The notes below the pieces were generated by a model. The model ran no database searches. It was not told the origin of the DNA and saw nothing but the letters and a program-made list of their open reading frames with translations. Positions 10,196 to 10,962 of a stretch of 64,000 nucleotides of DNA are shown here, in pieces. The translations under genes and the position numbers were made by a program. The stretch lies in UHGV virus genome UHGV-0171999; one strand, written 5' to 3'. Origin of the DNA: a virus. Each line of letters begins with the position of its first letter. The first letter of the stretch is position 1.

Positions 10196-10684
10196 ATGAA
10201 TATATTTGAAATGTTACGTATAGATGAAGGTCTTAGACTTAAAATCTATAAAGACACAGAAGGCTATTACACCATTGGTATTGGTCATTTGCTTACCAAA
10301 AGTCCATCACTTAGTGTTGCCAAATCTGAATTAGATAAAGCTATTGGACGTAATTGCAATGGTGTAATTACAAAAGATGAGGCTGAAAAACTCTTTAATC
10401 AGGATGTTGATGCTGCTGTTCGCGGAATTCTGAGAAATGCTAAATTAAAACCAGTTTATGATTCTCTTGATGCTGTTCGGCGCTGTGCATTGATTAACAT
10501 GGTCTTCCAAATGGGGGAAACCGGCGTAGCGGGATTTACTAATTCTTTACGCATGCTTCAACAAAAGCGCTGGGATGAAGCAGCAGTAAATCTAGCCCAA
10601 TCTAAATGGTATCGTCAGACACCTAATCGCGCGAAACGCGTAATCTCAACATTTAAAACAGGAACTTGGAAAGCGTATATATGA
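10196..10684 (+). CDS. e: endolysin (T4 lysozyme)
   Basis: [35 protein letters not shown]... essentially T4 lysozyme. Confidence 0.95.
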
Positions 10685-10962
10685 AAACATATAGTGAATT
10701 TTTATCAGAATCTATTCTTAACGAAGCTACTGACACATTTGCAACTAAGCTAGGTGCAGCTTTGGTTGAAGCTGAAAGTCTATTAGCACGTATTTCTGAA
10801 CTTGCTAGTAAGATAGATACTCGCAAATTTGAGCGCACCAGTGATATCGTTAAGCTTGAAGCCTTGTTGCGTATGTGCGATAAACCGGAAGAAATCGCTA
10901 AAAACGGCTCGCTAATGAAACAACGTCTTGAAAAATATATTTCAGGCGCTTCAGAAAAATAG
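10681..10962 (+). CDS. small protein with internal-protein-like N-terminal leader
   Basis: ATG overlaps e stop (ATGA); N-terminus [16 protein letters not shown] resembles the MKTY(Q/K)EFIAE capsid-targeting leader. Confidence 0.55.

Follow-up and report, generated by a model that had tools for sequence, protein, structure and literature searches.

A putative internal head protein gene of the Ip5 family in the e-denV interval of a T4-like phage

The internal proteins (Ips) of T4-like phages encounter host immunity before any other phage protein. At least 10 Ips are known, and only Ip1, Ip2 and Ip3 have been characterised, each of which blocks a different type IV restriction enzyme of the GmrSD kind (Silas et al. 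2025, PMC12373910); work on IPIII and strain ECOR17 also supports the inhibition of GmrSD by Ips (PMC9391042). Bas37_0260, a leader-bearing protein encoded at the ipI locus, inhibits McrBC (10.1101/2025.11.20.689424, a 2025 preprint), which brings to four the leader-bearing proteins for which a specific type IV restriction enzyme is known as the target. In later accounts (PMC3012670, PMC12373910), Ip5 is traced to the polymorphic genes of the ipI locus first described by Repoila et al. in 1994.

The stretch of DNA analysed here (the window) comprises 64,000 nucleotides of the virus genome UHGV-0171999 and comes from a Tequatrovirus (T4-like) phage, its first 25 kb being about 96% identical to EcNP1, Nami and UFV13. 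An earlier note on this DNA, made from the sequence alone, had placed a 93-aa open reading frame (ORF93) at an ATGA overlap with the stop codon of the lysozyme gene e, had read it as an internal-type protein with a capsid-targeting-like leader of the sort that the prohead protease removes, and had suggested an anti-defence role. The overlap and the coordinates are correct (Table 1); the assignment as an internal-type protein is borne out by homology to Ip5, by PHROG 3499 and by public annotation; and the anti-defence role corresponds to the field's standard expectation, by analogy with other Ips. The sequence finding itself is not new: the gene, its leader and its class as an internal head protein are already publicly annotated, and the concept dates from 1994. 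What is useful about the locus is that the cassette has clean boundaries, that there is evidence for its exchange between genera, and that protease motifs are, oddly, retained inside the protein. We hypothesize, and consider it probable, that ORF93 encodes an Ip5-family head protein that is made late, targeted by its leader, trimmed by gp21, injected and inhibitory to a host defence, and that the gene is a mobile cassette of the e-denV interval.

Table 1. Features of the e-denV region, the ipI locus and gene 61.1 in the window (a slash within a sequence marks a candidate cleavage bond)
Feature	Position	Strand	Remarks
Promoter modules flanking ipI	4216-4290, 4606-4655	+	about 45 bp, near-identical
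ipI gene	4289-4603	+
nudE	9704-10159	+
RNA hairpin sequestering the e Shine-Dalgarno and AUG in upstream-started transcripts	10159-10201	+	-16.2 kcal/mol, z -4.0
Two T4 late-promoter motifs, TATAAATA	10162-10169, 10175-10182	+	upstream of e
Lysozyme gene e	10196-10684	+	162 aa; stop overlaps ORF93 start
ORF93, ip5-like internal head protein gene	10681-10962 (including stop)	+	93 aa; ATGA overlap, phrog_3499, T2 Ip5 homology, dN/dS
Putative capsid-targeting leader of ORF93	10681-10725	+	7/10 match to MKTYQEFIAE, then SILNE/A; candidate cleavage
Most conserved core helix, residues 23-42	10747-10806	+	in predicted helix 4-44, pLDDT about 90
3' boundary module	10964-11017	+	GTTTAC 10964-10969, 18 nt, TACTAT 10988-10993; early-promoter-like
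denV	11021-11434	+	Pfam Pyr_excise match
86-aa leader-bearing ORF	11441-11701	+	MKMYQEFIIE/A; phrog_2667/35655; second leader-bearing internal-protein gene of the locus
ipIII	11765-12343	+	192 aa, MKTYKEFIAE/A; phrog_5341, E 2e-117
Gene 61.1	56351-56515	+	54 aa, MKTYKEFIKE/D; just upstream of primase gene 61 (56518-57546)

Family membership and distribution

ORF93 matches PHROG 3499, "internal head protein" (E 1e-46, profile positions 1-85 of 85), and aligns over its full length with T2 Ip5 (BBC14757.1; BLASTP, 48% identity over 84 aa, E 5e-23), which places it by homology in the Ip5 family of internal head proteins of T4-like phages. Besides this full-length homology, it shares with Ip5 (of T2, RB51 and Bas37, where the gene is bas37_0261) the type of leader, a cleavage motif at residues 13-15 and a predicted helical body, with a KLG.A..EA...L..RI.ELA core and an EIAKNGS..K.RL C-terminal helix. 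The differences lie in position and processing motifs: ORF93 is found in the e-denV locus, fused to the stop of e, whereas Ip5 is found in the ipI locus behind an early promoter of its own, and ORF93 has an extra LSE site at residues 8-10. Because its identity to classical Ip5 is only about 48%, ORF93 is, judged by its sequence, a distinct subfamily of Ip5. To T4 IPII it shows no similarity beyond the leader.

When 50,697 phage records were searched with ORF93 by tblastn, 510 matching places were found in 497 records, and about a dozen genomes hold both subtypes. A copy at least 95% identical lies directly beside e in about 233 records, so that the e-linked variant is a gene of some 230 sequenced T-even phages, including the easily manipulated BASEL phage Bas45; classical Ip5, 47-51% identical, lies at the ipI locus in about 258 records. 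The e-adjacent copy is labelled "internal head protein" in RefSeq records such as those of ime09, JS09, G4498 and ST0, and the record of VR20 names its copy "ip5, similar to bacteriophage T6 Ip5". The family is narrow: HMMER, run exhaustively against 1.84 billion representative proteins, yielded four clusters only, which leaves no distant relatives to exploit; a word-indexed protein search returned relatives that were all at least 81% identical. The most divergent members of the family (P0006 and P0009) are absent from isolated phage genomes, and neither Pfam nor NCBIfam has a match for ORF93.

Compared with its orthologue in VR20 (a Gaprivervirus, a genus other than that of the window), ORF93 has 25 synonymous and 14 non-synonymous differences, with a dN/dS of 0.12 in the plus-strand frame, a pattern that indicates a real gene under purifying selection.

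The e-denV interval and expression of the cassette

Polymorphic internal-protein cassettes occupy the e-denV/vs.8 interval and the ipI locus, and ORF93 lies in the former. A comparison of the e-denV interval, proposed in the earlier note, gives the order e - ipIII - ipII - denV in T4 and e - ipIV, without denV, in T2. Nothing lies between e and denV in Bas37 (KarlGJung); VR20 has the order e - ip5 - denV - ip10 - ORF - ip7; and in Bas45 (PaulHMueller) e is followed by an identical copy of ORF93 (bas45_0241), by denV, and by three more leader-bearing genes. The 86-aa ORF downstream of denV has orthologues in VR20 (VR20_119) and Bas45 (bas45_0239), and the ipIII of the window is near-identical to T4 IPIII. 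The order in the window is e - ip5-like - denV - 86-aa ORF - ipIII, with ipIII on the opposite side of denV from its place in T4.

Both boundaries of the cassette can be located. At the 5' side, the inserted segment starts within the last codons of e (junction alignment A2), where GCGTATAAAAATCTATAA of T4 and Bas37 resembles GCGTATATATGAAAACATATAG of the window, a microhomology shared by the 3' end of e and the sequence coding for the leader; as a result of this junction the lysozyme is cut back to 162 aa, and the ATG of ORF93 (10681-10683) comes to overlap the TGA of e (10682-10684) as ATGA. At the 3' side, the boundary falls exactly at an early-promoter/stem-loop module, GTTTAC...GATACTAT, which directly follows e in Bas37 and T4. 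The module contains a 10-bp inverted repeat, TTCCTCCAAG (10970-10979) and CTTGGAGGAA (11008-11017), which pairs with the denV Shine-Dalgarno (-18.5 kcal/mol, z -3.3).

The cassette is also less diverged than its surroundings. Between the window and VR20, dS is 0.56 for the cassette and 1.66 for e, and is saturated for nudE and denV; the cassette has 86% nucleotide identity and the flanks have 66-77%. The lower divergence of the cassette points to lateral exchange between genera, and the comparisons together speak for ORF93 as a mobile cassette in the e-denV interval, a swap locus for internal proteins.

Upstream of ORF93, late-promoter motifs are confined to the two before e (the next on the plus strand is at 17745), and ORF93 has no promoter of its own. 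The hairpin over the ribosome-binding site of e is conserved in the window. In T4, the e hairpin stops translation from early read-through transcripts, and late transcripts begin inside the hairpin, such that e is translated from these only. The Shine-Dalgarno of ORF93 is weak (GGAAAG), and this weakness, together with the ATGA overlap, suggests that ORF93 is probably translationally coupled to e and translated mainly in this way. As e is translated only from late transcripts, the ORF93 protein should likewise be late, appearing when prohead cores assemble.

The module at the 3' boundary resembles the promoter/stem-loop modules at cassette boundaries. The -10 element of its early-promoter-like GTTTAC-N18-TACTAT sits inside the loop of the inverted repeat, and transcripts started from this promoter would be without the 5' arm of the hairpin, a logic as in the e hairpin.

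The second internal-protein locus of the window holds an ipI gene with exactly the 19-aa leader of T4, followed by IPI* in its N-terminal half only. Beyond ...GDGWSAK, a run of A letters carries a -1 frameshift, so that the remainder of IPI* (KDGATIVISPAEETALFKAKHISAAHLKIIAKNLL) is read in a different frame; the gene is either a pseudogene, its inhibitor of GmrSD(CT596) having been lost, or the product of a homopolymer sequencing error. It is flanked by promoter modules (TTTCACAAAGTTGTTTACA...GTGATACTATTA), and repeats of this kind could allow cassettes to be exchanged there.

Leader, predicted fold and candidate processing sites

To place the leader of ORF93 among the reading frames of the window, every ATG-started ORF of 25 aa or more in the six frames (930 in all) was scored over its first 10 residues against the T4 capsid-targeting sequence MKTYQEFIAE. 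Only five of the 930 score at least 5/10: ipIII (9/10), the 86-aa ORF and gene 61.1 (8/10 each), ORF93 (7/10, departing at three positions) and ipI (5/10); the remaining ORFs score 4/10 or less. The likeness to an internal-protein leader claimed in the earlier note is thus more than chance. The same note had seen this leader on "ipII", ipIII and the ORF of the ipI locus; all three are among these five, and the identity given to the first was wrong, as the 86-aa ORF so named shares only its leader with T4 IPII and falls into a separate, uncharacterised family of internal proteins.

Within its leader, ORF93 carries gp21-type sequence motifs ([L/I]-x-E followed by a small residue). There are two candidate sites: LSE/S at residues 8-11, with a cut after E10 (10708-10710), and LNE/A at residues 13-16, with a cut after E15 (10723-10725). 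The 15-residue form lies within the known range, given that the leader of T4 IPI has 19 residues (MKTFKEFTSTTTPVSTITE/A). Across the Ip5 family (alignment A1), M1, K2, T3 and F7 are invariant, and no lineage lacks an [LI]xE in residues 8-15. There are two alternative positions for it: P0006 and P0009 have it at 8-10, VR20 and classical Ip5 have it at 13-15, and the window type has it at both. Constant presence combined with a shifting position is what would be expected of a cleavage motif under selection for processing.

The gene 61.1 product, which also bears the leader motif, shows that the motif also occurs outside internal-protein loci. Residues 2-38 of this product align with residues 57-93 of T4 gp23 (43% identity, pairwise E 4e-9), a stretch of gp23 that spans the gp21 maturation site (FLTE/AEIGG...) and the start of mature gp23*; gene 61.1 resembles a scaled-down copy of the cleavage region of gp23. 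It is conserved in about 1,400 records of T4-like phages, including Klebsiella, Aeromonas and Acinetobacter phages, and its product is not known to be packaged.

An AlphaFold model of ORF93, built on the eight-sequence family alignment, has a mean pLDDT of 81.6, lowest in the leader, and consists of three helices (residues 4-44, 53-65 and 69-90). The invariant positions of the family cluster in the core helix (K23, L24, G25, A27, E30, A31, L34, R37, I38, E40, L41 and A42) and recur towards the C terminus (K58, L63, E71, A73, K80, R82 and L83). Searches with this fold and family returned little else: a PDB sequence search with the family profile found designed helical bundles only (E above 0.01), Foldseek found nothing below E 5 in the PDB, and in a viral structure library it found only the family itself, as the VR26 "putative internal head protein". 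The predicted three-helix fold offers no functional clue. The mature protein would have a pI of 6.3 if it starts at S11 and 8.1 if it starts at A16. A DNA-mimic mechanism like that of Ocr or Arn was considered and rejected, as such a mechanism is acidic and therefore unlikely for a mature protein that is about neutral.

The core helix holds two further [LI]xE motifs conserved in the family, LVE/A (residues 28-30) and ISE/L (residues 38-40). Either these internal motifs are shielded by the fold, or ORF93 is processed further. In the second case the protein might be targeted to the prohead and then degraded, gp21 cutting also after residues 30 and 40, and might have its role in building the core or in charge balance, as gp67, gp68 and gp22 do, and not as an intact injected effector; alternatively, the mature species might be no more than a C-terminal piece of about 53-63 aa. 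The proteins gp67, gp68 and gp22 are cut to small peptides. Several features of the motifs speak for such further cutting: they are kept in all four lineages of the Ip5 family, the first has the canonical alanine at P1', they fall in the segment that is most conserved across the family, and eight other internal-protein families (T4 IPI, IPII and IPIII, T2 IpIV and Ip7, VR20 Ip10, the 86-aa ORF and Bas37_0260) have between them one body [LI]xE where composition predicts about 4.9. However, the motifs lie in a long helix predicted with confidence (pLDDT about 90), and cutting at buried helical sites would be unexpected; purifying selection is strong throughout the body and extends to the C-terminal helices; and the characterised internal proteins all act as intact folded inhibitors (PMC12373910). 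We therefore judge degradation or further trimming to be quite unlikely, and trimming at the leader followed by packaging of an intact protein remains the preferred reading.

Still less probable, in our view, is that the likeness of the leader has no function and that ORF93 is an ordinary cytoplasmic accessory protein, neither packaged nor injected. Such a protein would be compatible with a leader that agrees with the consensus at only 7/10 residues, with the presence of a capsid-targeting-like N terminus on gene 61.1, outside the internal-protein loci, and with the lack of an own promoter, by which ORF93 differs from T4 ipI, ipII and ipIII. It would leave unexplained why MKT..F and a nearby [LI]xE are kept in homologues down to 44% identity, despite changes in the intervening residues, and it sits poorly with the position of the gene in one of the two classical internal-protein loci, beside two other leader-bearing genes, and with its homology to Ip5, which is found at the ipI locus in T2 and Bas37. 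That ORF93 is a chance reading frame, or that the true gene is an antisense ORF (10653-10997, 114 aa), might be argued from its small size, from the absence of Pfam and NCBIfam matches and from the greater length of the overlapping antisense frame, but this is effectively refuted by the homologues (down to 44% identity), their alignment and the dN/dS of 0.12 in the plus-strand frame, while the neighbouring genes are all on the plus strand and the antisense ORF is marked as spurious by the same dN/dS together with the confident helical model.

Proposed mechanism and target

We propose the following course of events for an Ip5-family head protein encoded by ORF93. The gene would be transcribed together with e and read by ribosomes finishing e, and hence be expressed late. 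Its leader (MKTYSEF...) would direct the protein to the prohead and its scaffolding core of gp22, as suggested by the family and by work on T4, and gp21 would trim it after LSE10, after LNE15 or after both, to leave in the filled head a three-helix protein of about 78-83 aa that is roughly neutral to weakly basic. Both partners can be expected in this phage: T4 carries genes 21 and 22, and, although the head gene cluster falls outside the 64-kb window, the identity of about 96% to complete Tequatrovirus genomes makes the gp21 protease and the gp22 core likely to be present. The protein would then be injected with the DNA and neutralise a first-line host defence, the target being most likely, by analogy, one particular subtype of type IV (modification-dependent) restriction enzyme.

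The choice of target follows from the characterised proteins, all four of which inhibit type IV restriction, such that the best guess for ORF93 is the inhibition of another such enzyme. Between ORF93 and these inhibitors, Foldseek found no structural match and sequence comparison found no homology, the similarity to IPII being confined to the leader. ORF93 thus probably works like Ip1, Ip2, Ip3 and Bas37_0260 by analogy and is not a demonstrated member of their group. In the literature searched, no virion proteomics of Ip5-type proteins was found, and the paper on a HIDEN-SEQ transposon screen of Bas37 discusses bas37_0260 and describes no phenotype for bas37_0261, the Ip5 gene.

A bolder version, speculative and in our estimate unlikely, is that the Ip5 family, its e-linked subfamily included, is injected and inhibits a defence that the characterised Ips do not cover (a new type IV subtype or another first-response system). 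On this view the unusual conservation of the internal LxE/A and I.E/L motifs would reflect further processing by gp21, and the active form would be the C-terminal fragment of about 53-63 aa.

Set beside the described systems, the intact, injected protein that we favour combines shared and distinct features. Like the internal proteins of T4, ORF93 is small and has an N-terminal leader with a gp21 site, belongs with non-essential cassette genes at the same two loci, and would take the same presumed route from the prohead core into the head and on to injection (PMC3012670, PMC12373910, PMC9391042). Unlike IPI*, which is reported to be alpha/beta (PMC3012670), it is predicted to be all-helical, and its mature form would be about neutral, whereas IPI* (pI 9.0) and the IPIII* of the window (pI 9.6) are clearly basic. 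With Bas37_0260 of KarlGJung it shares its small size, the same N-terminal signal and a place in an internal-protein cassette locus; the body sequences are unrelated. Bas37_0260 was considered as an Ip5 homologue and rejected, the homologue in that phage being Bas37_0261, the gene of which adjoins bas37_0260 in the ipI locus.
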